A stretch of DNA of 32,000 bases from an uncultured archaeon (lineage in GTDB: Archaea > Asgardarchaeota > Thorarchaeia > Thorarchaeales > Thorarchaeaceae): NCBI GenBank assembly GCA_964354495.1, contig CAYHAA010000010.1, forward strand, positions 1 to 32,000. The letters are read 5' to 3'. Every line of letters begins with the position of its first letter. Position 1 is the stretch's first letter. The translations under genes and the position numbers were made by a program. A model generated the notes under the pieces. The model saw only the letters and a list, made by a program, of their open reading frames with translations. It was not told the origin of the DNA and made no database searches. Below are positions 1,946-22,954 of the stretch, in pieces.

Positions 1946-2075
1946 ACGATTTGGAAATTCGCAGAAGGAGAAGAGATTTGGCAACATGAACCAACTCTTT
2001 CGAATAGTAGGCTGCTTCATGTTCTTGACCCATTCATAGACTGGTTCGCATAGTTCCTTCATGCAAGACGCTCTT
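1946..2075. repeat. Junction repeat R1
   Basis: + TGGAAATTCGCAGAA (WKFAE) at 1952; bulged inverted repeat 1972-1998; - strand MKELCEPVYEWVKNMK. Confidence 0.85.
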
Positions 2076-2317
2076 CATTGAGGGGACTTGTCTTTCAATT
2101 CGTATTCGGAGCGCATTTTCTCAAGTCTCTTTCGATCTTCATAGGTCTTGTAAACACCAACAGCTACTGCACAAGGACCAACAGTACGGACTCTGGGTCG
2201 TTTTTTATGGTGTATCCAGATTTTGTCTGTTCTACGAGTTCTTGAGTCTCCACCAATTATCAGGATGAATAATACAGCTGCAAATCCAGCAGAGAGTAGA
2301 ATCAGACCTAATTCCAT
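2075..2317 (-). CDS. Small single-TM protein (80 aa), copy 1
   Basis: MELGLILLSAGFAAVLFILIIGG...; near-identical copy at 18820-19062 with the same length and frame. Confidence 0.7.
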   Translation of the reverse strand: MELGLILLSAGFAAVLFILIIGGDSRTRRTDKIWIHHKKRPRVRTVGPCAVAVGVYKTYEDRKRLEKMRSEYELKDKSPQ

Positions 2318-2350
2318 AAGTGACTGGTACTCTAGAGTAATAAAAACGTC

Positions 2351-2674
2351 ATGAATAAAGCAGAGTTCTATCATCAGAACCCAAATCTGATTGCGGTTGA
2401 TGAATACCGCAGATTTGTCGCATTCTGTTTGCATAGATTGGATCCACTACCAAGTATTGCAGAGATGGAGGCGCAGGGAGTGCATTCAGATTCTAGAAAC
2501 CTGACACTGGAAACAGCCCTCCTCTCAGAGGGTCAAAGGCGAGTAGTAAGACATCAGCCAAATCTGATTTGTGTGGTTGAGATTGATGTATCAGACCCCA
2601 TGAATCAGTTTCTTGAATCTGCAGGCTTCGTTCGAACAGTGACAATAAATCTATGGGGTAAGATAGTTGATTGA
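2351..2674 (+). CDS. Hypothetical ORF, possibly a GNAT-like remnant
   Basis: C-terminal PMNQFLESAGF resembles the GNAT motif A/B end; otherwise unsupported. Confidence 0.25.
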   Translation: MNKAEFYHQNPNLIAVDEYRRFVAFCLHRLDPLPSIAEMEAQGVHSDSRNLTLETALLSEGQRRVVRHQPNLICVVEIDVSDPMNQFLESAGFVRTVTINLWGKIVD

Positions 2675-2747
2675 GCGGAATTGCAAATGAAAAAAAAAGA
2701 TGAAAACAATCTGAGGGGTTTTTCATTCAGCTCTTTCATGTTGAGAA

Positions 2748-3152
2748 TCAAATAGGATCTATCACATCGATTTCAGGCACACGATTGAAGGCTTGATCGT
2801 GAGTCATGAGCTCACTTATTCCCTCAATTGACATGGTTGCCAAAATTGTGGCATCTCGTCCACCAATTCCAAGATGAGTGAATTCACCAAGTTTCGTCAG
2901 TGTCAAATCAACTATTTCCTCATATATGCCATAAAGTGGCATCCCATAGCTCAGAAAGACTCTTGCCTTCTTTGTTCCCTCAAGAGAGCCCAAACGTTTC
3001 ACAAGATAGTGTAAAGTTTCAACAACGATGGTCGCATTGACTGCTGCTTGATTCTTCTTCAATGCGGCCTCAACAGGTTTGATGACTTTACTATGTTCTG
3101 GAAGACTTGCATCAAAGTAGTACGCCCAGATGTTGCTGTCTATGAGCATCAT
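2748..3152 (-). CDS. vapC: PIN-domain VapC toxin
   Basis: MLIDSNIW N-terminal PIN motif, VVETL, GGRDATILA, LMTHDQAF; ATGA overlap with the upstream antitoxin. Confidence 0.9.
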   Translation of the reverse strand: MMLIDSNIWAYYFDASLPEHSKVIKPVEAALKKNQAAVNATIVVETLHYLVKRLGSLEGTKKARVFLSYGMPLYGIYEEIVDLTLTKLGEFTHLGIGGRDATILATMSIEGISELMTHDQAFNRVPEIDVIDPI

Positions 3153-3382
3153 GGTACTGCTCTCCAGATCTCCCTTAGCCGTAGTGGATCAACGTCACCC
3201 TTCACACTGATACACCCTCGGAGTTCTGTGATGAAGTCACTCAAATCAATGGCCTTCTCAATCTTTACTCCATTCTTCCCCGCGGTTATGCGTACGCGAG
3301 CTTTTGGCTTGAGACCTGTCTTTTCACGTAGTTCTTTTGGAATGGTCACTCTTCCTCGTTCGTCTATCTCTTCTATGCCCAT
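3149..3382 (-). CDS. vapB: AbrB/MazE/SpoVT-family antitoxin (VapB)
   Basis: IDERGRVTIPKELREKTGLKP AbrB signature; coupled to vapC. Confidence 0.88.
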   Translation of the reverse strand: MGIEEIDERGRVTIPKELREKTGLKPKARVRITAGKNGVKIEKAIDLSDFITELRGCISVKGDVDPLRLREIWRAVP

Positions 3383-3434
3383 TTGATTACCCACACCCAC
3401 TCATATTCCAACAGTTATCAATCTTGCGGCTGTG

Positions 3435-3530
3435 CGGAAGTTCCCTGAAAAGAAAAGATGATGAGCCGGTTGTCGCAGACTTCCATCTCATTCAAGCAAC
3501 CATATCATTTCATGGTCTTGGCCCATTTGA
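3435..3530. repeat. Junction repeat R2 (eroded)
   Basis: + CGGAAGTTCCCTGAA (WKFxE-like); degenerate GAGCCGG-N13-CCATCTC at 3463-3489; - strand KWAKTMK* at 3506-3530. Confidence 0.7.
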
Positions 3531-3596
3531 AGACATAATCGAACGAATTCCACCAAGATTATTACCGAAAGGAATCTTAGAACTTGTGGGAGTTCC

Positions 3597-4217
3597 ATGA
3601 AGACATACCTAGGTACTGGCATTTCTTTTATAATCGTCGTGATGTTGGCGTCACCACTTTCAAACGTGGGAGCACCTATTGCAAACAATCACACGTCTCC
3701 ACTATCCATCTTTCATGAGTGCCAATCCTCGGGCCCTTCGTTCGACCTTACGCTCTTGCCTGCTTTTGCAGATCTAGTTCCCGGTACTGAACCTGTGAAC
3801 TTGACTCTTGAACTCAGAGTTGGAGTGACAGATCCTGATGGTGTGAGTGTGGTCATCGGAAGTTACAAGAATCATTCGAGCAGCGAGTGGGCCAATGTCT
3901 CAATGAGTCGAGATGCTTCTACAGGTAATCCAGATGACTTTGTGGCATGGCCTCTCAATTACATGATTATTGAACCATCCTTTGTATTCATCTGGGACAT
4001 CAAATTTCATGCAAATGATACTCTAGGCATTTGGAACGCCTCTGAATTGCGTCAGATTTCGATATGCAGACAAGGCGCTACAGGTACCACAACTGATTTC
4101 CCCTTTGTTCCACTTGTCATGGCTGCAGGTTCTGTGGCTGTAATTCTGCCAGTACTCTACTTGGCGTATCGACGAAGAGCAGTTGTGCGGTCCGTCGGTA
4201 CAGAGAATTCAGACTAA
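3597..4217 (+). CDS. Secreted/membrane-anchored protein with Ig-like domain
   Basis: N-terminal signal, VGVTDPDGVSVV segment similar to the NosD C-terminal domain, C-terminal TM plus YRRR. Confidence 0.75.
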   Translation: MKTYLGTGISFIIVVMLASPLSNVGAPIANNHTSPLSIFHECQSSGPSFDLTLLPAFADLVPGTEPVNLTLELRVGVTDPDGVSVVIGSYKNHSSSEWANVSMSRDASTGNPDDFVAWPLNYMIIEPSFVFIWDIKFHANDTLGIWNASELRQISICRQGATGTTTDFPFVPLVMAAGSVAVILPVLYLAYRRRAVVRSVGTENSD

Positions 4218-4303
4218 AAGAAGAAAGAGAGAGTCGGCAGGAACTGCCAACTCAGGTGATCTCTGATTCCATTTCATTGTCTTGACCCAATCATAGACAG
4301 GCA
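4218..4303. repeat. Junction repeat R3
   Basis: Hairpin GAGTCGGCAG-GAA-CTGCCAACTC at 4231-4253; - strand PVYDWVKTMK. Confidence 0.8.
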
Positions 4304-4563
4304 CACGTTGAGTGACATGAGTCTTCTCTGGCACATCATCTTCTAGTCGTAAACGATGCCAAATACGTGTGTCTGGTTTTACGATGTTCCAACCCATTAC
4401 TCCTCACGATTGTCATCATTTCTTAGTGTTATGATTTGGGATTCCATATAGACAACAGATAACGCATGTATAACCGTGAGCTTGGTTTCATGTCCAGTCC
4501 TCTCAAGACTCCATTGAAAGACCTACGTAGGCGAGTTGGCATAAGTTCGCTGGTGATGGCGAC

Positions 4564-4779
4564 TCAATTATCACATTCTAGAACATGCTCTTTCCGTTTC
4601 AATAGTTTGACTGCAATTACCAAGTTAATCAAGCCCCAAAGCATGGCTTGGAAGCCTATTCCTTGGAGAAGAAGAACAAAAGAGAAGAAATACAGTGGAA
4701 TGCCAACTATGATACTTGCAATACACCAGATTAGCAGCGTATTTCCGAGTGTCTTGTTGAGATTCTCAATAGAAGTCAA
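4564..4779 (-). CDS. Small membrane protein, possibly truncated
   Basis: AGGAGG upstream of the TTG start; two hydrophobic helices (LLIWCIASIIVG; GIGFQAMLWGLINLVIA). Confidence 0.55.
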   Translation of the reverse strand: MTSIENLNKTLGNTLLIWCIASIIVGIPLYFFSFVLLLQGIGFQAMLWGLINLVIAVKLLKRKEHVLECDN

Positions 4780-4867
4780 GAGCTTCGCCTCCTGAATGGT
4801 AACTTGGTTTTCATATCTAAGTTTGTCGTAATGGTCTCCAACTCATTCAGCTCATTGATTCGTACAA

Positions 4868-5108
4868 ACATGGAAAAGATGCAAATTGGAAGTCTGAATG
4901 AGAAAAGGAAGAAGGATGAACTGGTTGTCGCGTGACTCACAGCCAGTTCACATTTAGATCGTTTCATGGTCTTGACCCATTCGATGACCGGCTGACAGAG
5001 TTCTTTGATTCGCTCTTTCTCGGGGGTCATCAGACCGGGCTTCCAGCCATCTGCTGGTTCGAACCACCAGTCTGTAACGATACTCTGCTGTTGGTCCCTT
5101 GGTCTTCA
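4868..5108. repeat. Junction repeat R4
   Basis: + HGKDANWKSE*; 12-bp stem at 4917-4950; - strand RPRDQQQSIVTDWWFEPADGWKPGLMTPEKERIKELCQPVIEWVKTMK. Confidence 0.9.
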
Positions 5109-5215
5109 TTCTATTCTGGCGCATAAAAGAATTCCAGAAATATATTGGAAACCTGATTATCCGATTAGGCTAATCAGGTATCCATGAGATAGCAAAGTAC
5201 TATTGGAATATGACT

Positions 5216-6040
5216 CTAGAAAGGAGCAAATATCCCTGCAAATACAATCCAAGCTAGTAGGGTCTTTGCAACAAGACTCAGCACTATATACATCCGTTCT
5301 CCATAGAGATAGTCTTTCCACTTGCTAACCTTCTTGTACTGAAGTACCATGTTCAGTGCGAAGATATTGAAGAGGAAGAAGTACATGAAGATTATAATGT
5401 ACACAAATGTTGGGGGTCCAGTTTCTGCAGCACCTATCGCTGCAGCAAAGTATCCAGACAGCACGAGCCAAGGTGTGAATCCAGCAATACATCCTAAGAT
5501 GAAAGGGCTCCATATAGTCTTCTCAGTGTATTGATTGACTAGCTCCATAAGATAACCAAACATTATCATCATGGTATTTAGAACTACAATCATCACCAAT
5601 GACCATAGATCCCAAATTCCTAATAGAAAAGTGATAAGAAAGATCATCACTGAACTTGACACCGAGTATTCATACCATCGATACGGATTCATTCCCTTCT
5701 GAAGCTTCGCGACATATTTGTCATTTAATGGATATGCAATCAGAAAGTGTGCTAATGCAGACATCAATGGAAATGATGCCAGAATGACACCGATGTTCGT
5801 CAATGTGAACAAGACCGCAGGCGTTGGTTGAACAAGAAACTCGAAGGGGTCTAGGCTGACAATTTCAAAATCCAGATAGATTGTATAGATATCCTGCTCC
5901 CATGCAAGGGTCAAGCCCAAGAAGAGCATCAATATTCCAGTTATTAGATGAAGCACTCCGGCATAGAGATTGAACTTTTTCAGATATGAGAAAGAAATCG
6001 GTGAGCCAGAAGACTTCTCCATCATCTCATCCACAGTCAT
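5216..6040 (-). CDS. Heliorhodopsin
   Basis: Seven-TM pattern; GVLHLITG and ALAHFL (conserved His residues), NPYRWYEYSVSSSVM helix C, LSLVAKTLLAW retinal-binding Lys motif. Confidence 0.93.
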   Translation of the reverse strand: MTVDEMMEKSSGSPISFSYLKKFNLYAGVLHLITGILMLFLGLTLAWEQDIYTIYLDFEIVSLDPFEFLVQPTPAVLFTLTNIGVILASFPLMSALAHFLIAYPLNDKYVAKLQKGMNPYRWYEYSVSSSVMIFLITFLLGIWDLWSLVMIVVLNTMMIMFGYLMELVNQYTEKTIWSPFILGCIAGFTPWLVLSGYFAAAIGAAETGPPTFVYIIIFMYFFLFNIFALNMVLQYKKVSKWKDYLYGERMYIVLSLVAKTLLAWIVFAGIFAPF

Positions 6041-6189
6041 AGTAATCGCTAATATAACGCAGAGATGAAATATTAATCCAATGGTATGCTTAAATTCTGT
6101 TAAGATAATCTCGACTTGGTCACTGAAAAGAGAAGCCCAAATCTCACTTGGTTACAGACATCTTGCCAACAGAATTCTTCGTTTTCTTT

Positions 6190-6551
6190 TTCTAGGATTT
6201 GAAAATTGCAGTCTATACTTTGCATCATGTATATCGAATCTTGCATCCGAAGGCAGCCATATGATATACCATGATTCGATTTACGATGTGATGATTGAGC
6301 CATTTCCAGATTATGAGCACGATTTCAGGCCTGCAAAAGGTATCGTTTCATACATGTAGTTTCTGATGGCTTGTGACGGGATAATTCAGAAATATCGATT
6401 CACCTCATATCAAGAATTACATTGGCTTCTTCATCATGGAAAAAGGACCAATTGGAAGTTTGAGTAAAAAGAAGAGAGAGGAGTAGGCATGCAGAGCCAA
6501 CTCTGCAATGGATAATATTATTTCATAGTCTTGATCCATTCAGTGACGGTT
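6190..6551. repeat. Junction repeat R5 with a long gene X pseudogene arm (6190-6467)
   Basis: + ENCSLYFASCISNLASEGSHMIYHDSIYDVMIEPFP...SYM*FLMACDGIIQKYRFTSYQELHWLLHHGKRTNWKFE* (one internal TAG at 6357); inverted repeat 6481-6503; - strand VTEWIKTMK*. Confidence 0.9.
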
Positions 6552-6610
6552 TACGTTGTTCGAACGATTGATGTCTGAGAGGAATCCAAAATCCCTCGAG
6601 GCAAACTGAG

Positions 6611-7396
6611 TTGATAGTAGACTTACCAGCTGGACTTAGAGAATCTGGTGCAATCGGAGTCAGAGAAAGACTCGGAACTATCTCTGGCGGAGATATCCTC
6701 GATGTAGGCACAGAAGAGGGCGACTTCATTACCACGTTGATGAAGACTCTGAGGGGATACAACTCATTCGTAGGAATAGACATCTCAGCAGATGACTTGA
6801 AGAAAGCAAGAGAGCGATTCAAAGACGCTCTAGTGGATTTGATGGAAATGAATGCTGAAACGATGTCATTTCCCGACAATCATTTTGATACAGTGTGTAT
6901 CTCATACTCAATCCATCACCTAAGGAATATTGATACTGTACTAGCTGAGATGTATCGCGTGTTGAGACCCGGAGGCAATTTCATCATCCAGGAATTGTAT
7001 TCTGATGGGGAACAGACTGAGGCTCAGCGATTGGACAGGGATATACATAATCTGAATGTAAGGATCGATACCATCTTAGGCATCCCTCATTTCAAGGCTT
7101 TAACTCGTCAGAGATTAAGAGACTCAGTCAACAAGGTAGGTCTGAGTGCTGTAGAGATCTATGAGTCCTCATGGTCTGTCAAATGCCTATTCTGTGAAGA
7201 TGCACCCGATTGTGAAGACCCGCTCAGGAAGGAGCATGTCGACTTAGTAACAAAGGAGATTGATGCTGATTTGGCTCGAATAAGTGATCATCCGTCTTAT
7301 GATGAATTGAGTAAAGAGGGAGAATCGCTCAAAGAGAGAGTCAGAGTTACAGGGTCATCTGCAGCATCTGTGATGTATTTCTTCGGAAAGAAGTAG
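6611..7396 (+). CDS. Class I SAM-dependent methyltransferase, copy 1
   Basis: ILDVGTEEG motif I, GIDIS, FPDNHFDTV, YRVLRPGG; C-terminal CLFC-x4-C. Confidence 0.9.
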   Translation: MIVDLPAGLRESGAIGVRERLGTISGGDILDVGTEEGDFITTLMKTLRGYNSFVGIDISADDLKKARERFKDALVDLMEMNAETMSFPDNHFDTVCISYSIHHLRNIDTVLAEMYRVLRPGGNFIIQELYSDGEQTEAQRLDRDIHNLNVRIDTILGIPHFKALTRQRLRDSVNKVGLSAVEIYESSWSVKCLFCEDAPDCEDPLRKEHVDLVTKEIDADLARISDHPSYDELSKEGESLKERVRVTGSSAASVMYFFGKK

Positions 7397-7424
7397 TGTC
7401 AAAACGAAATCCAAGTCAGTGCTT

Positions 7425-7625
7425 TTCAGGTTTCATGCCAAGAGTTGCACGAATTCCTCTGGCAGGGCAAAGATACAGAGTGGACATTTGAAGAAAAATG
7501 AAGGAATGAGGGGAAAAATATCGTTCTTCCCACTTGTTCAGTATGGAATTACTTCATCGTCTGGACCCATTCATAGACAGGTTCGCATAATTCCTTCATA
7601 CGCTCTTTCTCGTGGGTCATTGAAC
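7425..7625. repeat. Junction repeat R6
   Basis: + QELHEFLWQGKDTEWTFEEK*; - strand MTHEKERMKELCEPVYEWVQTMK*. Confidence 0.9.
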
Positions 7626-7706
7626 CAAGTTCTCGGCTGTTTGAAGGCCAAGAACAATATTTGGATGAGATTAATAGACTCTATGAGGAATCTGAGTCTG
7701 ATACCC

Positions 7707-7868
7707 ATGTTATTTACTGCGGTCATTTCGCGCGAGGGAAGACTTTACGTAGCTCTTGCACCTGATGTGGATGTAGCAAGTCAAGGGGAAACAATCGAAG
7801 AAGCCCTTGCTAATCTCAAGGAAGCCTTAGAGCTGTATTTCGAGGACGATGACACCATTGACTCATAG
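7707..7868 (+). CDS. hicB: HicB-family (UPF0150) antitoxin-like protein, orphan
   Basis: MLFTAVISREGRLYVALAPDVDVASQGETIEEALANLKEALELYFE; the longer track ORF 7419-7868 is run-on through R6. Confidence 0.8.
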   Translation: MLFTAVISREGRLYVALAPDVDVASQGETIEEALANLKEALELYFEDDDTIDS

Positions 7869-7870
7869 AT

Positions 7871-8263
7871 TCAGTTGGATGTTCCTTTCAAATAATTCTG
7901 GATTGCTCTAACAAACTCCGGAGCATCAACTAAGAGGGAATCAATTGATTTCCATACTATTTTGAAATCGATATCTAGATACTGATGCACCAACACGTTT
8001 CTCATCGCAACCACCTTTTGCAGATTCGAAGAAAGACTAGCAGAGATGATGTGATTATTAGCCAGAATCTCTATTGTGCCCTTGTAGGTGTCGCTTATCC
8101 CGTAGTGTTTCTGAGCTACGACATGACTGCAGATATCGATTATGGATTGGGCTATGGTTTCAATAGCTCTTGCTGTCGATCTCAGGCTCTTCCCATCACT
8201 TAGAAATTCCTTGCGATTCTGTTTCTTGATTGTCTTTAGGAATTCAACCTCCTCCAGAATCAT
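7871..8263 (-). CDS. HEPN/DUF86 (HepT-like) RNase toxin
   Basis: AIETIAQSIIDICSH and RNVLVHQY (Rx4H); frame is open upstream to a CTG at 8302 preceded by AGGAGG, so the true start is probably earlier. Confidence 0.88.
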   Translation of the reverse strand: MILEEVEFLKTIKKQNRKEFLSDGKSLRSTARAIETIAQSIIDICSHVVAQKHYGISDTYKGTIEILANNHIISASLSSNLQKVVAMRNVLVHQYLDIDFKIVWKSIDSLLVDAPEFVRAIQNYLKGTSN

Positions 8264-8291
8264 TGCCAGCCTTCGTTCGACAACAACTGTA

Positions 8292-8720
8292 TCAAGTCCC
8301 AGTCTGAATGCCTCCTAAGGTCTCTTTGAGTAGACGTTGCTCAAAAATACGATAATCAGGATAATGTATGAGGACTTCTTCGATGAAATCAGACCAAGAA
8401 TCATCATCCTTCTGAAAAAGCACGACACCATCCCTTGCGATTCGATATCGTAGAGCCCAGTTTGCATCCTCTATGAGAACAACATCAACTGCAAGGGCGG
8501 GTCCTTCCAATTCGGAGATGATCTGAAGTCGGAGATTGAATCGCTTCTCTCCGTCCTTCTCTGTTGTACCAATAGCAATATCGAGATCGCTGTGTTCGGA
8601 GTGGTCACCACGGGCCCTGGAACCAAACAATACAATGAGACTGATACTATCTGGCGCAACCTCCAGAACTCTCTGCGCAATCTCATTGTGGTCGAGCGTT
8701 GGAAACCCCTCTTGGTTGTT
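8292..8720 (-). CDS. Minimal nucleotidyltransferase (MntA-like antitoxin), start uncertain
   Basis: VLFGSRARGDHSEHSDLDIAI motif and VDVVL; frame open to 8720 without an ATG; adjacent to the HEPN gene. Confidence 0.85.
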   Translation of the reverse strand, partial: NNQEGFPTLDHNEIAQRVLEVAPDSISLIVLFGSRARGDHSEHSDLDIAIGTTEKDGEKRFNLRLQIISELEGPALAVDVVLIEDANWALRYRIARDGVVLFQKDDDSWSDFIEEVLIHYPDYRIFEQRLLKETLGGIQTGT

Positions 8721-8862
8721 TCAAGCAATGGTACATCAAGTTCAACATATAAACTCAAAGGTGTTTCATATTTCATTAATCTAGAAAACCTAGTATGATC
8801 TGCTATCTTGCGCTAAACGCTCTTCATTATAGTGCACAATGGAGAGAATATGATGAATAATA

Positions 8863-9975
8863 ATGACGCCTGGAAAGAGAATTCGCATCACAGTAATCCT
8901 CATTATGGCTGGATGCATTTCTGCTGTTTTTGTTAGCATTGAGACCCATCCGGTGGGGTATGATGTTGCGGCTGAGGGAGATTTCGTGTACGTATCGAAC
9001 AATGATGGTGTAGTGGTTATCGACAAAAGCGTCTACAATGCACCAGTGCGAGTGGCGAATGTACCCATGAGTGACGGTGCTTTTGGATTAGACATAGAAA
9101 ACGACAGACTGTACGCTGCAGGAAGTTCAAGCGGCCTCGTTATTGTTGATATTAGTATTCCAACAAGTCCCGTAATTCTCGGAGATGTTCCTTTGGGTGT
9201 TGCAACCAATGTCTTTGTTTCTGGAAACTGTGCCTATGTAGTAAATGCCGACGGAGAACTTGGCATTGTTGATGTATCTAACTCATCTGACCCACTAATA
9301 CTTGGAACGTTGGACGTTGGCTCAAGAGGAAGTGATGTAGCAGTCGCAGGAAATACCGCGTATTTTGCGGATCCTGATAGTGGCCTTGTTGTAATTGACG
9401 TGAGTGAGCCTTCATCTCCGGGCATCATTCAAACCCTGTCCAACACGCATGGAGCTTGGGATATTTGTATCTACGAAGACATCCTGTATCTCGGGTGTCA
9501 TGGAAACGGCCTCAGAGTGTTCAACATGTCATCCCCAGAAGATCCAACGTGGCTCAGTTCGTTTGATAATGGTGGAGAAGTCTACGGTGTTTCCGGAAAC
9601 CGAGAGTATCTTGTATTGGCGGATTTGCAGGAAGGCGCTGAATTACTGGATGTTACAGACCTCAGAAATCCAGTGTTAGTTGCCGAGTATAGTAATGCAG
9701 CACCACATTCCGTATATTTTGACGGAAAGTATGCATACCTGGGCGATCAAGACAAAGAGTTCATCCTAATCGACTTCGATGCTGATGAACCAATTGGTTA
9801 CCCATCCCGCAGCCTGAATGTCAACTTGCTATGGGCAATCCCGATTATATTGCTCTCGATAGGAGTCTCGGTCATAGTCGTACCAGTCGTTGGAGCGAGA
9901 ATGAAGAGCTGGAGGTCACTTGGCCGCCAGCTCATGAAGATACTACTTGCTTCATTGTCTTGGCCCATTCGATGA
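8863..9975 (+). CDS. LVIVD-repeat beta-propeller membrane-anchored protein
   Basis: Repeats GLVIVDISIPTSP, GIVDVSNSSDP, GLVVIDVSEPSSP, GLRVFNMSSPEDP; N-terminal signal and C-terminal TM; last about 25 codons run through R7. Confidence 0.88.
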   Translation: MTPGKRIRITVILIMAGCISAVFVSIETHPVGYDVAAEGDFVYVSNNDGVVVIDKSVYNAPVRVANVPMSDGAFGLDIENDRLYAAGSSSGLVIVDISIPTSPVILGDVPLGVATNVFVSGNCAYVVNADGELGIVDVSNSSDPLILGTLDVGSRGSDVAVAGNTAYFADPDSGLVVIDVSEPSSPGIIQTLSNTHGAWDICIYEDILYLGCHGNGLRVFNMSSPEDPTWLSSFDNGGEVYGVSGNREYLVLADLQEGAELLDVTDLRNPVLVAEYSNAAPHSVYFDGKYAYLGDQDKEFILIDFDADEPIGYPSRSLNVNLLWAIPIILLSIGVSVIVVPVVGARMKSWRSLGRQLMKILLASLSWPIR

Positions 9976-10042
9976 CAGGTTGACAGAGATCCTTGATTCG
10001 CTCTTTCTTGGGATTCATTGGACCGGGCTCCCAGTCATCATC
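9890..10042. repeat. Junction repeat R7
   Basis: GAGCTGG-N14-CCAGCTC at 9906-9933; - strand DDWEPGPMNPKKERIKDLCQPVIEWAKTMK. Confidence 0.88.
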
Positions 10043-10183
10043 TATTTTGGCCATTTTCCCTGCTGTAATTCCTGATTCATCTGTAATTTCCCCCTTAACA
10101 AAGAAATATTTGAGATAATGGTACGCTGAGATATTCTTAAAAAAAGTGAGGAGAGCCATAGAATTGGCTCTCATACAAAGGGT

Positions 10184-10974: not shown

Positions 10975-11263
10975 TCTGAATTACTCCTCGCCTTGCACCC
11001 CTGTATAATATGTGCATATGTTCTATTTTATCACCCGCTTTTTGAATGAAAGCAATTCCGCGTTTCAATTCCGTTGCATCAACTATGATTTCATAGAGAG
11101 AAACGAACAACGTCCTTTAGGGACTTATACCAGTATGTTTTTCAACAGACCAAGTAGCTCTTGAGCAACAACTATACCGAAGATGAAAGAACTGTAGATG
11201 GGAGGTGACTCTCAATAAAGTCAAAGTAAACCTCCTAAATTCCTGAAATCAGTTTTCCTTACA

Positions 11264-11640: not shown

Positions 11641-11791
11641 GAATCGTGAATTGAATCCATATCCAATAGGTCTTTAGAATCAATGTTTACTAAAAGCATA
11701 AAATTTATGCTTAGCTGTTCATCAGAAGGGGTGGTCAGAAGAAAAGCAAAGATCTACATCATTGATGGAGACATTCGTGTGGCTCTTTTCT

Positions 11792-12361: not shown

Positions 12362-12364
12362 TAT

Positions 12365-12883: not shown

Positions 12884-12886
12884 TAT

Positions 12887-14678: not shown

Positions 14679-14820
14679 TTGGATGATAGCTGCAGATATA
14701 TGATCGTATACGTTCTCCTAATTAGCGGATGATTTGAAAAGTTCATGGAGTGAGATGGGAGGTGACTTCTCACAAAGTCTAAAACAAACCTCCCAAATCC
14801 GAAGAATCAGATTTCTTGGT

Positions 14821-15299
14821 TCACGCTGTCCATGCCTTTACAAAAGGCTCAGCACCAAAATACCAAGAAGTTCCTACAGTATCATCATCATCGCAATCTA
14901 TCATCCGTATATACAGAACTGACGATGTTGCCGCGGTAATATCAATGTCACCTTCATACGCGAAGACATCACAAAGCACCAACCGAGTGTAATCTTCAGC
15001 ATCAGACCATCTATATTCCACTTCAAGCGATTCTATCCATGGCCATCCAGGGTAAATAGTATTATAAACAAGGTGTATCCAATAGTCATCCGCATTTTGG
15101 GTAATGCCCTCAAATGTGAATACGATATCGCATCTATAGTAACCAGAATAGTATGTTTCAACAGCTCTGTTATTCAATACACTCCATACACCTTTGACTT
15201 CTTCGATGTCCTCATAATAGTAATAGTTATAATGTGAAGCGCTTGCTGGCATACAAAACGACAAACAAATGCTACGAAAATTGGTATGAACAGTTTCAT
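14821..15299 (-). pseudogene. Secreted protein with a 1-nt frameshift in the signal peptide
   Basis: MKLFIPIFVAFV (ATG 15299) is one base out of frame from LSFCMPASASHY...; the shift falls in a T-run near 15265. Confidence 0.55.
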
Positions 15300-15733
15300 A
15301 TTTTTTCTCAAATACTTTTTCTCCTCATACCACACGAAAGTCCCATTAGCTATATTCACTCATTGCATAAAAGATTTGTGGAATCTTATTATTGATTAAT
15401 TCGATGTTGAAAGTACTAACGCATTCTAGTTCTTAGAAAAGCAACTTGATAGAACACTAAATTACCCAACCTGGACAATTGATCTGAATTTGGTCATTCC
15501 TGCGATGATTACAGTGGCAATCCAACTCGTATTACTGGTTATCAAGTATGTAACAGGCATCTAGTCAATCTACAAAATCAAAATCCATCTTTTCCAGACT
15601 ATCATGTAAATGACTCGGCTTCAACCTCTAGAATTAACCACAACCGCAATTCATTGAGCGTATGGGCTCTTGAATCAGCTAGTAGGTATTCGTGTTCCAT
15701 ATATTACTCCCAGAAACAGAAGAAGGAACATAG

Positions 15734-16117
15734 GTGCAATACCGAATGAAAAGAATACGAACCCCCTCGAAGAAATTGCAGGAGAGTCTCTTCCATGTTA
15801 TTCTGGAGGTTAAGCCTGCGGTCATCATTGGTAGGAAACAGAGAATAAAGATGACTCATGGAACATATGTCATTGAGGACATACCTCACCCAAAAAATAA
15901 ATCACCAGAAGGACTGAGAATCTATGCATCACTACCAGCAACGAATATCGATAGAGCAATGGAACCGGCAAGAGGAGTCGCTAACATACTCCAAAATCAA
16001 TTCACCGTCCTGACAAAAACATCCATTCCTGAGTTGCTTATCATGAAAGCATATGATGTGACACCAGGAAGGAAATTTATCCAATACTTCGAACGTTTTA
16101 TTTATCATAGACAATAG
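15734..16117 (+). CDS. Hypothetical protein
   Basis: ORF only; no recognisable motif. Confidence 0.3.
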   Translation: MQYRMKRIRTPSKKLQESLFHVILEVKPAVIIGRKQRIKMTHGTYVIEDIPHPKNKSPEGLRIYASLPATNIDRAMEPARGVANILQNQFTVLTKTSIPELLIMKAYDVTPGRKFIQYFERFIYHRQ

Positions 16118-16246
16118 CCATGTTTCTTTTCTTGTACACACAGACTTCTTTCCCACTAGAGGATGTGAGTCTGAGGTCCATACCATTCTGCCATACTTTC
16201 ATACTGTCTAATATCTCTCTACCTTCTTCGTTGGTCAAATATTCAG

Positions 16247-16897
16247 CTATCTCACGTACATCAGCATCATCAATACCGCTATTGCAGAGGTCACTTCCAC
16301 GCCCCTTCCGACGGTCTCGAATAGGCTCTCCTCTAGCCAGCGAGCTCTCTCACTACCGTCTTTCTCCTTGGGAACAAGCCAAGCCCATACACTATAGACT
16401 GTTTCTGGAGTCACCATTGTATATAGTCCTTCCATATGCTTACGAAATCGAACAACCTTGGAATGCGTCTTGTCCGTTCCTTCTATTCTGACATGTATTC
16501 TATGAGTTTCTTTCAATTCGTTCATGTATTCGATAAACATGCTAGATATTAGATTGACAATCTCTAGATACTGATTTCCGTCGCGAGTGATCTCGTCGCT
16601 ACTAGGAACGAACTCCTCAATGACTCTATCGATCATTTTGTGAACATCGCTTCTCTGTAGATCATAAGGATACCATTTCTTGTACTCAAACTCTTTCTGA
16701 CGATCCTGTGCACTATAAATCTGGTTCTCAACGAAAGTCACGAAGTCTCGTATCCATTCTTCGATGATGGTTATGATATCTTCCTTTGAAATCCCAAGTC
16801 CTTGGAGATATTCTAATGATTTTTGTTTTTGTTCACGCCGCCGATTCTCCATAGCATGACTAGAGTCGGAAAACGCAATTATTGGTTTCGTAATCAT
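16247..16897 (-). CDS. Hypothetical helical protein
   Basis: 216-aa ORF with protein-like composition; no family recognised. Confidence 0.55.
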   Translation of the reverse strand: MITKPIIAFSDSSHAMENRRREQKQKSLEYLQGLGISKEDIITIIEEWIRDFVTFVENQIYSAQDRQKEFEYKKWYPYDLQRSDVHKMIDRVIEEFVPSSDEITRDGNQYLEIVNLISSMFIEYMNELKETHRIHVRIEGTDKTHSKVVRFRKHMEGLYTMVTPETVYSVWAWLVPKEKDGSERARWLEESLFETVGRGVEVTSAIAVLMMLMYVR

Positions 16898-16955
16898 CTC
16901 AATACGTGATATACATGGTAGATGATAGCGTCACAGCCAAGATTGACGAGTTCTC

Positions 16956-17105
16956 TGTGAGGTTGTGATGCAGACCTATCACTTCACATCAGTGCGAGAA
17001 CTCCATGAATTCCTGTGGCATGGCAAAGAAACGAATTGGAAATTCGAATGAAAAGAAGACCGTGAGCTAGAGTCTAAGTCTCTCAGCTTATTTTCGTTTT
17101 TTGAT
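16956..17105. repeat. Junction repeat R8
   Basis: + CEVVMQTYHFTSVRELHEFLWHGKETNWKFE*; bulged inverted repeat 17063-17090; DUF35 arm nearly erased. Confidence 0.85.
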
Positions 17106-17165
17106 TTACGTTGTTCGAAGGATTGATGTCTAGGAAGAACCCAGATTCTCTCGAGGCAACCTGAG

Positions 17166-17951
17166 TTGATAGCAGACTTACCTGATGGACTTAGAGAATC
17201 TGGTGCAATCGAAGTCAGAGAAAAACTCGGAACTATCTCTGGCGGAGATATCCTCGATGTAGGCACACAGGAGGGTGACTTCATTGATACGTTGATGAAG
17301 ACTCTGAGGGGATACAAATCATTCGTAGGAATAGATATCTCAGCAGATGACTTGAAGAAAGCAAGAGAGCAATTCAAAGACGCTCCAGTGGATTTGATGG
17401 AAATGAATGCTGAAACGATGTCATTTCCAGACAATCATTTTGATACGGTGTGTATCTCATACTCAATCCATCACCTGGAGAACATTGACACTGTACTAGC
17501 TGAGATGCATCGCGTGTTGAAACCCGGATGCAATTTCATCATCCAAGAATTGTTTTCTGATGGAGAACAGACTGAAGCTCAGCGATTGGATAGGGATGTG
17601 CATAATCTGAATGTAAAGATCGACACCATCTTGGGCATCCCTCATTTCGAGGCCTTAACTCGTCAGAGATTGAAAGATGTAGTCAACAAGGTCGGTCTGA
17701 GTGCTGTAGAGATCTATGAGTCCTCATGGGCTGTCAAATGCCTATTCTGTGAAGATGCACCCGATTGCGAAAACCCACTGAGAAAGGAGCATGTTGACAT
17801 TGTGACAAAGGAGATTGATGCTGACTTGGCTCGAATAATTGATCATCCGTCTTATGATGAATTAAGGAAAGAGGGAGAATCAATCAAAGAGAAACTCAAA
17901 GTCACAGGGTCATCTGCAGCATCCGTGATGTATTTCTTCGGAAAGAAGTAG
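17166..17951 (+). CDS. Class I SAM-dependent methyltransferase, copy 2
   Basis: Same length (261 aa) and colinear with 6611-7396, including the flanks. Confidence 0.9.
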   Translation: MIADLPDGLRESGAIEVREKLGTISGGDILDVGTQEGDFIDTLMKTLRGYKSFVGIDISADDLKKAREQFKDAPVDLMEMNAETMSFPDNHFDTVCISYSIHHLENIDTVLAEMHRVLKPGCNFIIQELFSDGEQTEAQRLDRDVHNLNVKIDTILGIPHFEALTRQRLKDVVNKVGLSAVEIYESSWAVKCLFCEDAPDCENPLRKEHVDIVTKEIDADLARIIDHPSYDELRKEGESIKEKLKVTGSSAASVMYFFGKK

Positions 17952-17979
17952 TGTCAAAACGAAACCCGAGTTGCGGCTT

Positions 17980-18011
17980 TTCAGATTTCATGCCAAGAGT
18001 TGCACGAATTT
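17980..18011 (+). repeat. R8b: truncated gene X arm
   Basis: TTCAGATTTCATGCCAAGAGTTGCACGAATT, same as the start of R6 (QELHEF), then breaks off. Confidence 0.7.
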
Positions 18012-18059
18012 CAAGCATATCTCTACGAAGTAAGACCAACATGGTATAACCTGAAGATT

Positions 18060-18572
18060 TCAATCGTTCCGGGGAACACCATAGTATGTCCACATACTTA
18101 CAGGAGCACCCGCAAGTTTCAGGTACATCCACAACTGCATTTTGTGCATTGCTAGATGAGTTGTGATCTCCGGGATATAATGAGCCCAACTCTTTGGTAG
18201 CCCTTCTTGATCGAATGGCTTCAGACTGTTCTCCGTAAGCTTATCGTCGGAGAGTTTTGAGATGAATTCATGAATAGTCTCCATCCCTTTGTCATAGATT
18301 GCAAGCAGTTCATCAATCGTGCCCCTACGAAGCTCCTTTTCCATTGCATGGACTTCTTCAAAGTCATTGAATTGCATTGAGCAGAATTTTAGATCAATTG
18401 TTGGGATTTCAGCCAAATGATTAATCAAATCAATCAAAGAACGCATTTCATCTCGGGGTTTGAAATTAAGATCAGAACCTATAGCAGCCGCCATGACAAA
18501 TCTAGTTTGACGACTCTCATGATCTATCATATCTAGTAGTATCTTAGAAATTGTACCCATGTCTAAAACCAT
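18060..18572 (-). CDS. DinB/YfiT-family protein
   Basis: LNFKPRDEMRSLIDLINHL and THLAMHKMQLWMYLKLAG with the family His triad pattern; start uncertain (18572 or 18560). Confidence 0.85.
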   Translation of the reverse strand: MVLDMGTISKILLDMIDHESRQTRFVMAAAIGSDLNFKPRDEMRSLIDLINHLAEIPTIDLKFCSMQFNDFEEVHAMEKELRRGTIDELLAIYDKGMETIHEFISKLSDDKLTENSLKPFDQEGLPKSWAHYIPEITTHLAMHKMQLWMYLKLAGAPVSMWTYYGVPRND

Positions 18573-18625
18573 GCGACTACAAACCGAACACGTACTTGAC
18601 AATTACGCTCGTTTTGTACGAGAGG

Positions 18626-18820
18626 TGTCGCTTCACATCAGTACAAGAACTTCATGAGTTCCTATGGCATGGAAGAGATACAAAGTGGAAGTTCGCTGAA
18701 GAATAAAAGTGGCAGAGCTGGAAGTCACAAGACAACCAGCTCTTGGGATTATCAGGTTGCTTCATTGTCTTGACCCATTCATAGACTAGAGCGCAGAGTT
18801 CCTTCATGCAAGACGCTCTT
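18626..18820. repeat. Junction repeat R9
   Basis: + CRFTSVQELHEFLWHGRDTKWKFAEE*; AGAGCTGG-N14-CCAGCTCT at 18714-18743; - strand MKELCALVYEWVKTMK. Confidence 0.92.
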
Positions 18821-19062
18821 CATTCAGGGGACTTGTCCTTCAATTCGTACTCGGAGCGCATTTTCTCAAGTCTCTTTCGATCCTCATAGGTCTTGTAAAC
18901 TCCAACAGCTACTGCACAAGGACCAACAGTACGGACTCTCCGTCGCTTCTTATGGTGTATCAAGGTTTTGTCTGTTCCACGAGCTCTTGAGTCTCTACCA
19001 ATTATCAGGACAAATACTGCAATTGCTAATCCAGCAGAGAGTAGAATCAGACCTAATTCCAT
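18820..19062 (-). CDS. Small single-TM protein (80 aa), copy 2
   Basis: Paralog of 2075-2317 with the same junction to the repeat. Confidence 0.7.
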   Translation of the reverse strand: MELGLILLSAGLAIAVFVLIIGRDSRARGTDKTLIHHKKRRRVRTVGPCAVAVGVYKTYEDRKRLEKMRSEYELKDKSPE

Positions 19063-19397
19063 AAGTGATACGTATGCTAGAGTGATAAAAATATCATGAA
19101 TAAAGCAGGAGTGAGAGTGAGTTGCACAACACACGCTCTGAGAAGCTCACTCGCTTCTTTGGATTCTCCAGGTCTGAAATACATCGTATAGAGGATTCTT
19201 GATGACCTCGATTTGATCGATCTAGGGTTGGAAAGTAAGAGATGAAGAGCTGATCGTCGTCTAAGAAGCGCACACAAGAGGATTGATTAGGAAAGCAATA
19301 GACTTGATTTGAGGGAAATCTGCTGCTGGCGCGAGAGTCAATAGTCGCATCAATTGTTCTGATATTATGTCTGGCAGGATGTTATCCAATCTCGCCA

Positions 19398-20687
19398 GTG
19401 AAACATCAGCTGCAACTAGTCGCGCTTGCTGAAGAGGAGTCTTTTCAGTCTGAAAATAACCATGAGGCAAGCTCCGCAGCAGTGGTCATCGTGAATTCGG
19501 ATGACGATTTCAACACATCAGGTTGGACAGGAAATGGAACAATCGACAATCCGTATGTGCTTGCCAATAAGACGATAGAAGGCGAGCGTTGTATTCAGAT
19601 AGAAGATACGCGTTGTCATTTCAGGATCGAGAATTGTACACTGGATGCAGTCTACTATGGCATTACTCTCTTCAATGCCACTAATGCTGTTTTGATTGAC
19701 TGCACCATAGACTCTGAACAATTGTGCATATCTGTACATTTGGTGACAAATGCAAGTATTCTACATAATTCAATCTATTCAGCTGAAAGGGGGATTGAAA
19801 TTGAACAGTCGAGTCTATGCGGCGTGGTCAATAACAGCATTGAAACACGTTGTACTGGAGTTGCTCTGTTTTTTTCAGGTCAGTGCCACATCGCGAACAA
19901 TTCAGTATCATGTAGCATTGAAGAGAACTTGGTCCTCTCGAAAAGCAATAGTACTAGTGTCATAGAGAATACGTTTCTAGGGGGGGACAGCGGGCTATTT
20001 TCTTGGGAAAGCCACGATTGTGATATATTCAATAATACAATTGCCAGCAATGGATATGCAATTCATGTACGGGAATCATCAAACGGCTCCATTATTGGTA
20101 ACCAATTTGGTAGTGTAGCGGGTGAGACTGCTCTTGATGATGGAACCGATAATTCGTGGGATGATGGTGTATCTCTGGGAAATGCATGGCTTGATTATGA
20201 TGGGATTGGAGAATATCAAATACCTGGAATGGCCAATAGCATAGATCATTTTCCAACAAAGTTCGAACCACTGTTTCCGATGGATTTTGATGGTCCGTCT
20301 ATTAGTATTCCTTTCTATTTTGTCCATTTTGATTATATTGGTGAAATACCCGCCTCATACAGGTTTTGTGCCACTGTGACTGACCCATCCGAAGTGGACA
20401 CAGTCATCATCACTGTAAATGGAGGGGCTCACGTAATGAACCATCAACCCACCCCTGAGGATCCAGACCTCTATATCTTTGATTATCCCAATCCAGGTGC
20501 GATGAGGCACTCCTATTGGGCAAATGACAGTGTGGGGCATTCATCTGCTACCGAAGAGGGTTTTATTTCAATGGGGATCATTGCAGGTACCGTACAAGAT
20601 ACGGCGAGGCTATACATGACAATCGGTGGCCTTCTGGTGCTCGTCGGAGCCATTGTTGTATTAGTACGACGACTAAGGCCAAAGTAG
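19398..20687 (+). CDS. NosD-like beta-helix surface protein, copy 2 (5' end extends to about 19320, start disrupted or CTG)
   Basis: Colinear with 537-1916; signal peptide and LAGC are in frame upstream of 19398, but there is a 1-nt deletion relative to the TTG start of copy 1. Confidence 0.85.
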   Translation: MKHQLQLVALAEEESFQSENNHEASSAAVVIVNSDDDFNTSGWTGNGTIDNPYVLANKTIEGERCIQIEDTRCHFRIENCTLDAVYYGITLFNATNAVLIDCTIDSEQLCISVHLVTNASILHNSIYSAERGIEIEQSSLCGVVNNSIETRCTGVALFFSGQCHIANNSVSCSIEENLVLSKSNSTSVIENTFLGGDSGLFSWESHDCDIFNNTIASNGYAIHVRESSNGSIIGNQFGSVAGETALDDGTDNSWDDGVSLGNAWLDYDGIGEYQIPGMANSIDHFPTKFEPLFPMDFDGPSISIPFYFVHFDYIGEIPASYRFCATVTDPSEVDTVIITVNGGAHVMNHQPTPEDPDLYIFDYPNPGAMRHSYWANDSVGHSSATEEGFISMGIIAGTVQDTARLYMTIGGLLVLVGAIVVLVRRLRPK

Positions 20688-20715
20688 CTGATGCTAATCA
20701 ATGGTTCTCTGATGA

Positions 20716-20971
20716 CACGGTTTGGAAATTCGCAAAAAGAGGAGAGAGAGTTGGCGGCATGGAAGCCCACCAACTCCTTTGCCGGTTCTACCTCATCGTC
20801 TGAACCCATTCATACACAGGCTCGCAGAGCTTCTTCATGCGCTCCTCCTCGGGCGTCATCCCCACGCTTGGTTTCCAGCCCTCAGCTGGCTGGAAGCACC
20901 AATCGGCCCCTGTGCCCTGGCGCTCATTCCCTGGAATCCAGACCACTCCTACAGGCATGCCCGAACTCTGC
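20716..20971. repeat. Junction repeat R10
   Basis: + TGGAAATTCGCA; GAGTTGG-N15-CCAACTC at 20748-20776; - strand GMPVGVVWIPGNERQGTGADWCFQPAEGWKPSVGMTPEEERMKKLCEPVYEWVQTMR*. Confidence 0.92.
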
Positions 20972-20977
20972 TTCTCC

Positions 20978-22348
20978 TTACTGAATCTTCTGCTCGCGGA
21001 ACCACTGATCACAAACCGTCTTGACTAATCTGTTGTGAGGCTCAATCTCCAAAGCACGCTTCATTGATTTTTCTGCTTCCTTCCTCCGACCAAGTCTACC
21101 TAACGCACTGCCCCGAGCAGTCCAGGGTAATCCTGAAGCGGGAATTGCCATAATGGCTTCTTCAATTAATGGTAAAGCTTCTTCACATTTGCCACGTTCT
21201 ACAAGAAGATCAACAAGCATCAGCTTGCTCCTAGGATCATCTGGATAGTCTATGATAGTATGGCGGAGGACTTGCTCAGCTTCATCGTATCTTTCTTGTG
21301 GCGCCAAGGGGTATCCTTTGCCAAGAGATTGCACCATAGTTGCCAGTTTCTGAGCGACGTCGTCGGAAATATAACGGACTCTCTTTTCTCCTGTGTCCTG
21401 GTCTGCAACAGCAACTCTGACGCTCTTGGCATAAGCGGACTGAGCCTCCTCGTCTCTGCCACCAATTTCCTGTAGAACACAATATAGATTCGACCAGGAT
21501 ACTCTTTGTGATGGGTCACTCTCTACTGCTTTTCGATATGCCTCCTCAGCCTCATGGAGTCGACCTTGATTATAGAGTCTAACTCCCAGATTGTGCCAAG
21601 CCTTTGCATTGTTTGGAGTAAACATCGTTGCGTTTCGATAGGCAACGACCTCTTCATCAATCAGCTCTAGTCTATTCAAGACAAGTCCGAGCTCATTCCA
21701 GATGAGACCATCATATCGTGCAGATTCGAGATACTGTCGATATGCGTCCGCTGCTTTTTCAAACTGATTCATATTGGACAGTACAAAACCCAGGCCTTTC
21801 CAAGGGAGCGCATAATTGGGATCCAGATCAAGTGATTTCCTAAATGCCATCTCAGCCTCCCGAAATGACCCCTGTTCTGCTAGAGCGAAACCTAGATTGC
21901 CCCAAGATCGTTGATCACCCGGATTACACGCTATGGCCTTCGTGAAGGCATCTTCAGCCAGTTTTGCACGTCCGGTTCCTTTGTATATATTTCCAAGGTT
22001 GAACCAGGCCGCGTAGTTCTGAGGGGCGAGAGTAGTAGATTGTTTGAATGCACGCTCAGCATCATCAAGACGAGAAAGGGATAGAAGTAACGAGCCGTAA
22101 TTCGTCCAAGTGGTTCCTTTGGTACTGCCTAGATTTACGGAACATTCAAAGGCCTCTAAAGCCTCATCCGCCCGACCTTGCATCATCAAGACGAGTCCGA
22201 GTAATCCCCATCCCTCAGATGAGTTCTTGCTCTTCGCAAGCAGCTCTCTGCAGCATTTCTCAGCTTCGTTGTTGTTGCCCTGCTCTGCCAACTCCCAAGC
22301 ACGGGAAATCGACTCCTTTTCTTCATCATTCATTTTACATGCCTTCAT
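20978..22348 (-). CDS. Tetratricopeptide repeat protein
   Basis: Many 34-aa repeats (AWFNLGNIY, SWGNLGFAL, PWKGLGFVL, AWHNLGVRL). Confidence 0.92.
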   Translation of the reverse strand: MKACKMNDEEKESISRAWELAEQGNNNEAEKCCRELLAKSKNSSEGWGLLGLVLMMQGRADEALEAFECSVNLGSTKGTTWTNYGSLLLSLSRLDDAERAFKQSTTLAPQNYAAWFNLGNIYKGTGRAKLAEDAFTKAIACNPGDQRSWGNLGFALAEQGSFREAEMAFRKSLDLDPNYALPWKGLGFVLSNMNQFEKAADAYRQYLESARYDGLIWNELGLVLNRLELIDEEVVAYRNATMFTPNNAKAWHNLGVRLYNQGRLHEAEEAYRKAVESDPSQRVSWSNLYCVLQEIGGRDEEAQSAYAKSVRVAVADQDTGEKRVRYISDDVAQKLATMVQSLGKGYPLAPQERYDEAEQVLRHTIIDYPDDPRSKLMLVDLLVERGKCEEALPLIEEAIMAIPASGLPWTARGSALGRLGRRKEAEKSMKRALEIEPHNRLVKTVCDQWFREQKIQ

Positions 22349-22457
22349 TTAACGACATAACTAGCTGCTGTTATTTCTTTTGTTTTCACAAACGAAGGCG
22401 CATATCTTCATGTGGTCTTTCATCACATTTGATTTGTCAGCAGACAGATTTCCGGTT

Positions 22458-22920
22458 TTCTGGCATGGCAAAGAAACGAATTGGAAGTTCGCTGAAGAAT
22501 AAAAGTGGCAGAACTGGAAGTCATAAGACAACCAGCTCTTGGGATTATCAGGTTACTTCATTGTCTGAACCCATTCATACACAGGCTCGCACAGCTTCTT
22601 CATCCGCTCCTTTTCAGGGGTCATCCCGACACTCGGTCTCCAGCCATCTGCCGGCTCGAACCAGAAGTCCGTGACGGTGCCCTGTCGGTCGTTCTTTGGT
22701 TTCCAGACGACCTTCACTGGCATGCCGAACTCAGCATCCCAGGGGGCGAGTCCCCGCAGCTCGTTCGCGATTGCAGTCTTGCAACCGTCAACGATGACGT
22801 ATGCAAGCACGAAGGGGAGGCGTTTCAGAGAACTCCGTCCTGACCACGCAGCGATAGTCCAAGTATGAACAGTGCCGCGCTGCGCCAGTGGCTGCCAAGT
22901 TGTACGCTCCAAGATGCAAT
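22458..22920. repeat. Junction repeat R11 (longest DUF35 arm)
   Basis: + FWHGKETNWKFAEE*; inverted repeat 22510-22539; DUF35 arm 22553-22920. Confidence 0.92.
22553..22920 (-). pseudogene. 5'-truncated Zn-ribbon/OB-fold (DUF35, ChsH2-like) gene
   Basis: GTVHTWTIAAW...LPFVLAYVIVDG...AEFGMPVKVVW is the DUF35 OB-fold pattern; the N-terminal Zn-ribbon is missing. Confidence 0.8.
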
Positions 22921-22954
22921 CCCTTCTAAACATGGAGATTACTTCTCCATCGTC

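Follow-up and report, generated by a model that had tools for sequence, protein, structure and literature searches.

Displaced gene ends that bound inserted modules are already known from yeasts and from tRNA-linked islands. The stretch of DNA analyzed here (the window; 32,000 nucleotides of contig CAYHAA010000010.1 from an uncultured archaeon of the Thorarchaeaceae) contains an array of such ends, namely, ten 3' ends of a DUF35 gene, which are called arms below (R1 to R7 and R9 to R11). All ten are found on the minus strand between positions 2012 and 22933 and are co-oriented (nhmmer repeat profile; E values from 4e-22 to 9e-10), and they are separated by low-GC cargo. The arms are probably the ends of DUF35 alleles whose differences accrued in working genes of several Thorarchaeota lineages and which were displaced by insertions. 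When the literature was searched, no account of arrays of this kind in Asgard archaea came up. What is added here to the known cases is a quantitative signature of selection, the chimeric structure of the arms together with a gradient of decay, and the identities of cassettes across species at the DUF35 locus.

Several described systems share features with this array. Integrative elements accrete in tandem at the 3' ends of tRNA and protein genes, and integrase-less derivatives include the tycheposon islands, CIMEs, and the additive flexible islands of Alteromonas. As at the DUF35 locus, direct repeats of the 3' end of the target gene flank each module, and the modules differ between relatives. 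However, no integrase was found in the array or the genome studied here, conservation of the coding type extends over up to 120 codons, and the cassettes are often single genes. Integrons, which Ghaly and coworkers reportedly found in Archaea (2022), likewise have small, often single-gene, promoter-poor cassettes between hairpin-forming repeats beside a fixed anchor, but here there is no IntI, the orientation of the cargo is mixed, and the repeat looks like a gene tail plus terminator rather than attC. In rhs and related toxin loci, old C-terminal ends pile up downstream after recombination in the conserved part; those tails are the variable, selected payload, whereas the DUF35 tails are conserved and unrelated cargo makes up the payload. 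In Torulaspora and Lachancea yeasts, WHO homing elements insert at the housekeeping gene FBA1, and each insertion exchanges its 3' end and displaces the old end downstream (Coughlan et al. 2020, PMC7282813). The DUF35 array has the same row of cargo between gene-end fragments, and the downstream fragment that provides repair homology and the mosaic live gene of the yeast system (PMC7282813) may have counterparts in it. The differences are that nearly no unit here has a nuclease, that the cargo is accessory and unrelated, that the edges of the fragments vary, and that the host is an archaeon without meiosis.

The source gene of the arms is a housekeeping gene for a DUF35/ChsH2-type OB-fold protein, the DUF35 partner of a thiolase. 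The window is the initial 32 kb of a 110-kb contig (C10) in a genome of 3.3 Mb (47.7% GC, 97.7% complete) whose nearest relatives are Thorarchaeota metagenome-assembled genomes, and the intact, resident copy of the gene lies 220 bases past its end (32220 to 33032 of the contig; 270 codons), directly after the thiolase gene at 33035 to 34312. The intact gene encodes a Zn ribbon and an OB fold. The C-terminal OB fold (PF01796) is present both in this gene (E = 4.4e-9) and in R11 (22553 to 22933, minus strand; E = 1.5e-10), an open fragment of 126 codons of which about 120 are DUF35 and represent the OB-fold half. The rubredoxin-like Zn ribbon (PF12172), which like the thiolase neighbor belongs to the intact gene, is found in none of the arms, R11 included. 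Because the intact gene sits just beyond the window, R11 is a fragment and not the host allele; arm fragments, even an open one such as this, should not be annotated as genes. In several tail-free genomes (loci L018, L021, and L028 to L030), a gene for glutamine-dependent NAD synthase lies a few kilobases downstream of DUF35 and may be part of the undisturbed neighborhood.

The differences among the arms carry a signature of selection. Nei-Gojobori counts in ten arm comparisons, each with a binomial test against neutrality, gave pN/pS values of 0.03 to 0.32, and neutrality was rejected in all ten (P from 1e-15 to 0.014). At silent sites, most pairs have reached or approached saturation (pS of 0.25 to 0.96), and replacement differences are low (pN of 0.04 to 0.26). 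Over 120 codons, the resident gene and R11 (83% DNA identity, with no stop codon and no frameshift in R11) have 43.2 silent differences (Sd) and 16.8 replacement differences (Nd), which corresponds to a pS of 0.53, a pN of 0.060, and a pN/pS of 0.11 (P = 1e-15), with about one silent substitution per site. An initial annotation of the window had pointed out that R6 and R11 differ at 7 of their final 17 codons, 6 of them synonymously; we found the identical codon pairs (Sd, 8.0; Nd, 1.0). R4 and R7, described there as differing mostly at third positions, gave an Sd of 7.5 over 17.8 synonymous sites and an Nd of 8.5 over 75.2 nonsynonymous sites (pN/pS of 0.27; P = 0.005).

The purifying selection that the annotation had proposed is thus evident in every comparison, and neither a star of arms around the host allele nor a dN/dS near 1 was seen. 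Since silent divergence far exceeds replacement divergence in every pair tested, decay of copies of the resident gene does not account for the arms. The description of the arms in the annotation as functional alleles needs correction, however, as decay has affected their proximal ends and five of them no longer have a stop codon. As a cause of the conservation, gene conversion from the resident gene was ruled out by the saturation of silent sites against that gene.

The arms likely come from more than one lineage, short of formal proof, as judged from their motifs, an indel, and their placement in a tree. Two peptide types, MKxLCEPVYEW and IKxLCQPVIEW, are interleaved along the array, as had been noted in the initial annotation. 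The IKELCQPVIEW type is found in full genes at six related loci (L004, L011, L015, L017, L037, and L054), and MKELC[AE]PVYEW occurs in many other full-length Thorarchaeota genes. R4, R6, and R7 are also without a codon that is present in the resident gene, R10, and R11 (...PSVGMTPEK versus ...PG-PMNPEK), a one-codon indel for which point decay cannot account. A tree of the final 57 codons (87 rows) united the resident gene with R10, R11, and two metagenome alleles in one clade (support, 97/83), and a clade of the six window sequences alone was rejected (P = 0.021). The initial annotation had expected the arms to group with different species; R4, R6, and R7 fall outside the host clade in this tree, and R10 and R11 belong to it.

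Among one genome per species, none of the arms has a near-identical live counterpart (best, 83 to 84%), and a scan of metagenomes yielded closer relatives for R10 and R11 only. An R11-type tail is common in co-occurring relatives (L063, L097, L098, and L100 to L102), and the live gene of the host carries a different tail, set apart from the R11-type tail typical of the clade by codons -14 and -4 and by silent sites. We infer from this that R11 might once have formed the 3' half of the host's own gene. The GC-rich appearance of R10 and R11 was confirmed as a contrast (0.61 and 0.58, versus 0.42 to 0.47 in the surrounding cargo) but was ruled out as a sign of foreign origin, since the same segment has a GC content of 0.46 to 0.60 in live alleles and 0.54 in the resident gene. 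The contrast stems from the low-GC cargo and not from a GC-rich donor.

Decay is distributed unevenly within the arms. It was measured as the number of residues that are unseen in 55 live alleles, for which the live average is 0.5 per 57 codons. R11 has 1 such residue in 57 codons; R10 (20788 to 20961, minus strand; 57 codons, host clade) has 9 in 57, 7 of which are in the proximal 24 codons; and R4 (4959 to 5105, minus strand; 47 to 48 codons of the IKELCQPVIEW type) has 5 in 47, 4 of which are in its first 8 codons. R7 (9947 to 10042, minus strand; 31 codons, IKDLCQPVIEW type) has 2 in 31, and R6 (7549 to 7623, minus strand; 24 clear codons of the MKELCEPVYEWVQTMK type, with about 11 further codons decayed) has 2 in 24, both within the first 4 codons. 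R11 looks as live as the resident gene, with five residues that are unique among live alleles, compared to six in the resident gene. The proximal 24 codons of R10 have a pN/pS of 0.32, and the distal 33 codons, which appear intact, have a value of 0.09; identity to clade-typical tails climbs from 0.62 to 0.93 toward the stop codon. The stop codon itself is lost in 5 of the 10 arms (at 2012, 4269, 4959, 9947, and 18757), although the preceding eight codons are nearly intact. Four of these five losses are T-to-C changes at the first base, which left CAG in R1, CGA in R4, and CAA in both R7 and R9; R3 has TGG at this position.

The arms are also chimeras, as is seen in R9 (18757 to 18807, minus strand; 16 codons). 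This arm resembles R11 through the adjoining tail of a convergent neighbor gene (gene X; see below), the hairpin, and the initial 14 or so bases of the DUF35 tail (88%), and its remainder, onward into the cargo, resembles R1 (95%). The switch falls within about codons -5 and -4. R1 (2012 to 2062, minus strand) consists of the final 16 DUF35 codons (MKELCEPVYEWVKNMK), and its proximal edge runs on into cargo at 2063 to 2366; the block of tail plus cargo is found again at R9 and in the metagenome contig L103. One and the same edge of cargo and tail thus occurs with three different distal tails, those of R1, R9, and L103. The distal part of an arm goes with the hairpin and cassette on one side, and the proximal part goes with the cassette on the other side. 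Since the arms are chimeric, the proposal in the initial annotation that each arm arrived with its cassette is true only piecewise.

Each arm meets its neighbor at a junction with a recurrent structure. In the reading direction of the gene, every tail is followed after 12 to 20 bases by a hairpin (GAGYTGG, loop, CCARCTC) with a pyrimidine-rich run, examples of which are at 18715 to 18742, 9906 to 9933, and 20748 to 20776, and after the hairpin there is often the worn 3' end of gene X. The final 27 or so bases plus the hairpin are common to all of the repeats. Folding of 101 distinct junctions, drawn from this genome and its relatives, gave z scores below -2 for 83%, and the stems covary in a compensating manner. 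The motif is specific to the locus, with 5 of its 8 matches in the genome on this contig; the only further match to the hairpin pattern on the contig is at position 88684, outside the window. Such hairpins could recall attC sites, but they lie beside a gene tail and a T-rich run, as terminators do, and a scan of the window against Rfam families gave no match. A tRNA scan of the window was likewise negative.

Gene X is intact at 31593 to 32000 in the window (plus strand), ends at position 32171 of the contig, and converges on the intact DUF35 gene. Its longest displaced tail, of 91 residues, is at 6189 to 6461 (plus strand), and shorter tails are at 299 to 469, 7304 to 7489, 16947 to 17045, 18611 to 18694, and 22458 to 22490. 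The insertion site is the tail-to-tail DUF35/gene X junction, that is, a gene tail, a terminator-like hairpin, and a gene X tail. The gene X tail at 299 to 469 (57 residues), at the left edge, borders immediately on the first NosD cassette, and no DUF35 tail could be detected between the two. The window begins at the first base of the contig, so the array may extend further to the left. Positions 1 to 78 consist of two 39-base tandem units inside an open reading frame (ORF) that runs off the end of the contig, and these units may be the reason why the assembly stops there.

The lengths of the tails vary from about 27 to 380 bases. Three arms are minimal tails of about nine codons, all on the minus strand: R2 at 3505 to 3534 (FKWAKTMK, stop), R3 at 4269 to 4298 (VYDWVKTMK), and R5 at 6518 to 6547 (TEWIKTMK, stop), the last of which is joined to a methyltransferase cassette at 6611 to 7396. 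A further junction, “R8” (about 17046 to 17105), lies ahead of the second methyltransferase cassette; it retains a hairpin and a gene X tail, but the DUF35 tail is absent. Its hairpin differs from the others, and a T-rich stretch replaces about 30 bases of the tail seen at R5; either the tail was deleted or the junction never had one.

The blocks between the tails have a GC content of 40 to 47% and encode accessory functions. They include genes for two NosD-like surface proteins, a PIN protein, a heliorhodopsin (5216 to 6040, adjoining R4), two S-adenosylmethionine methyltransferases, HepT and a HicB-like partner (adjoining R6), an LVIVD protein, an ABC ATPase, a DinB protein, and a TPR protein, as well as a 9.3-kb block with a HerA-like ATPase and an HNH nuclease with NUMOD3 repeats (29643 to 31499). 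Many cassettes are too small for an enzyme gene and are often single genes, and the orientation of the cargo is mixed. Methyltransferase copy 2 and DinB form one block without an internal junction (17166 to 18602), and a block with 93% identity is present in the metagenome contig L063, which indicates that units can merge and then travel together. Directly beside R11 there is an ORF of 613 residues (22955 to 24796, minus strand; GC content of 0.39), for which we found no Pfam, PDB, or informative Atlas match.

Comparison with relatives places this array among many. In all of 64 related loci, the extra tails are on the gene's own strand; among Thorarchaeota loci whose downstream DNA is long enough, about half have them, compared with 0 of about 24 loci from Thermoplasmata and Helarchaeota. 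Cassettes are more similar across genomes than the gene at which they reside, with identities of 84 to 95% for the methyltransferase, 91 to 97% for DinB, and 94% for LVIVD, versus 72 to 78% for DUF35 in the same genomes. The two methyltransferase copies in the window are 92% alike, and copy 2 is 95% identical to the copies at L002 or L103; the order of cassettes differs between the window and L103. On these identities, cassettes have evidently moved horizontally between species, in agreement with the acquisition from related lineages that had been proposed in the initial annotation. The gene families that recur are cargo, and none of them is present in more than 8 of the 64 arrays. Live genes also appear to be mosaic: in some pairs, identity is 75 to 76% upstream and 93 to 96% in the final 24 codons (for L020 and L079, 76% and 96%), a discordance read from pairwise identities over short segments. 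L017 and L037 are 87% identical upstream and 53% identical in the junction, and other close pairs likewise have unrelated junctions.

If the arms are displaced allele ends, incoming DNA would carry, in the direction of the gene, a new tail, the hairpin with a gene X tail, cargo, and a fragment of an old tail. It would recombine with the end of the resident gene, so that the live gene would gain the incoming distal tail and the previous tail would be pushed downstream and fused to the fragment brought by the cargo. The distal part of an arm would then have been live until recently, hence its intact look, and the proximal part would be decaying noncoding baggage. Displacement of this kind would explain why distal parts look live, why proximal parts decay, and why neighboring arms differ in type. 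The route may be two-crossover repair from donor DNA or the insertion of a circle excised between two tails; we infer both the route and the direction of each event from the arrangement of the array. Among the engines considered, we favor general homologous recombination in a WHO-like geometry, with no dedicated integrase, although taken by itself this route is slightly less likely than not. A search of the 97.7%-complete genome for Phage_integrase (PF00589) gave no match at E ≤ 1, with positive controls, and the ORFs of the window gave none; Cas1 also had no match in the genome.

A number of observations weigh against the displacement of allele ends from several lineages by homologous exchange. 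Approximately unbiased tests did not reject placement of R4, R7, or R6 inside the host clade (P = 0.27, 0.26, 0.105, and 0.094); the sequences are short and their silent sites are saturated. The claim in the initial annotation of at least two lineages has the indel, the motifs, and the tree placement on its side and these P values of 0.09 to 0.27 on the other. The best full-length protein match to the resident DUF35 has 83% identity, and the full-length protein search gave no closer relative, so an exchange of the live tail is presumed for this genome. The genome has two genes with a resolvase domain (small serine recombinases of about 200 residues, on contigs C22 and C24), which were not linked to the arrays. 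The only crossover that could be mapped falls within a short segment at the extreme end of the gene, and silent diversity is low at codons -7 to -4, both of which a site-specific enzyme would fit too; for the latter, other codons are also biased, and the case for silent-site conservation as a DNA-level core is weak. Homologous exchange alone also does not explain the first origin of long fragments such as R11.

Some of these points would also fit a hypothetical site-specific recombinase, acting in trans, for which a core within the last codons or the hairpin would be the point of cassette insertion and excision, with the tails being att-site copies carried by the cassettes; integrons and tandem integrative elements are the model for such a system. 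The final 27 or so bases and the hairpin shared by all repeats, the mapping of the R9 crossover to about 15 bases, the low silent diversity of GAA TGG GTC AAG, the locus specificity of the GAGYTGG...CCARCTC hairpin, and the many cassettes too small for an enzyme gene would all be expected under it. We nevertheless consider it unlikely, since the genome has no match to Phage_integrase or Cas1, its only resolvase-domain genes are the two frames of about 200 residues on other contigs, no gene recurs throughout the 64 arrays, and tail length ranges between about 27 and 380 bases. Homing similar to that of WHO elements is a still less probable engine. The NUMOD3-HNH protein at 29643 to 31499 would cut sensitive DUF35 ends, repair from the donor would copy a resistant, recoded tail along with the nuclease and cargo, and the old tail would be displaced. 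The products fit the WHO model (a replaced 3' end, displaced tails, and mosaic live genes; PMC7282813), the live DUF35 gene has an HNH nuclease gene with many NUMOD3 repeats two genes away, the order DUF35, gene X, HNH recurs at L062 and L102, and the resident and R11-type tails differ at codons -14 and -4 and at silent sites. However, the nuclease is found in one of about 11 units and in 3 of 64 arrays, the other cargo consists of surface proteins, toxin-antitoxin pairs, rhodopsin, and a methyltransferase, and the proximal edges of the arms spread from residue 143 to residue 258 with no single common cut site.

Two further explanations are very improbable. Local duplication of the end of the resident gene, followed by decay in place, would suit the decayed proximal parts of R10, R4, and R6 and the five lost stop codons, but it is already contradicted by the low pN/pS values with saturated silent sites, by indel and motif types equal to those of live alleles elsewhere, and by the recurrence of cassettes and tail edges in other species. 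Misassembly, in which fragments of several strains were chained through the repeat, might be suspected because the contigs of many relatives break at the DUF35 locus and the window starts at a contig end; however, the arms are only 70 to 90% alike and hence share short exact words, and arrays with multiple tails occur in many independent assemblies.

The array would, if its arms were once live ends, point to a means of gathering accessory genes (rhodopsin, toxin-antitoxin pairs, and surface proteins) for which no integrase is required. It is conceivable, and we advance it only tentatively, that Thorarchaeota capture genes without a recombinase, with the last codons and terminator of conserved genes acting as general docking sites and cassettes being traded between species by homology alone. 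If so, each trade overwrites the end of a housekeeping gene and leaves a dated fossil of the previous allele, and the arrays could be read as a time-ordered record of gene transfer in the prokaryotes most closely related to eukaryotes. On the view that the arms were formerly live, the C terminus of an essential gene has repeatedly been replaced by alleles of other lineages, and the array stores past alleles linked to the cargo that accompanied them. The order, sources, and rate of gene transfer among Asgard archaea would then become testable from genome sequences by themselves.

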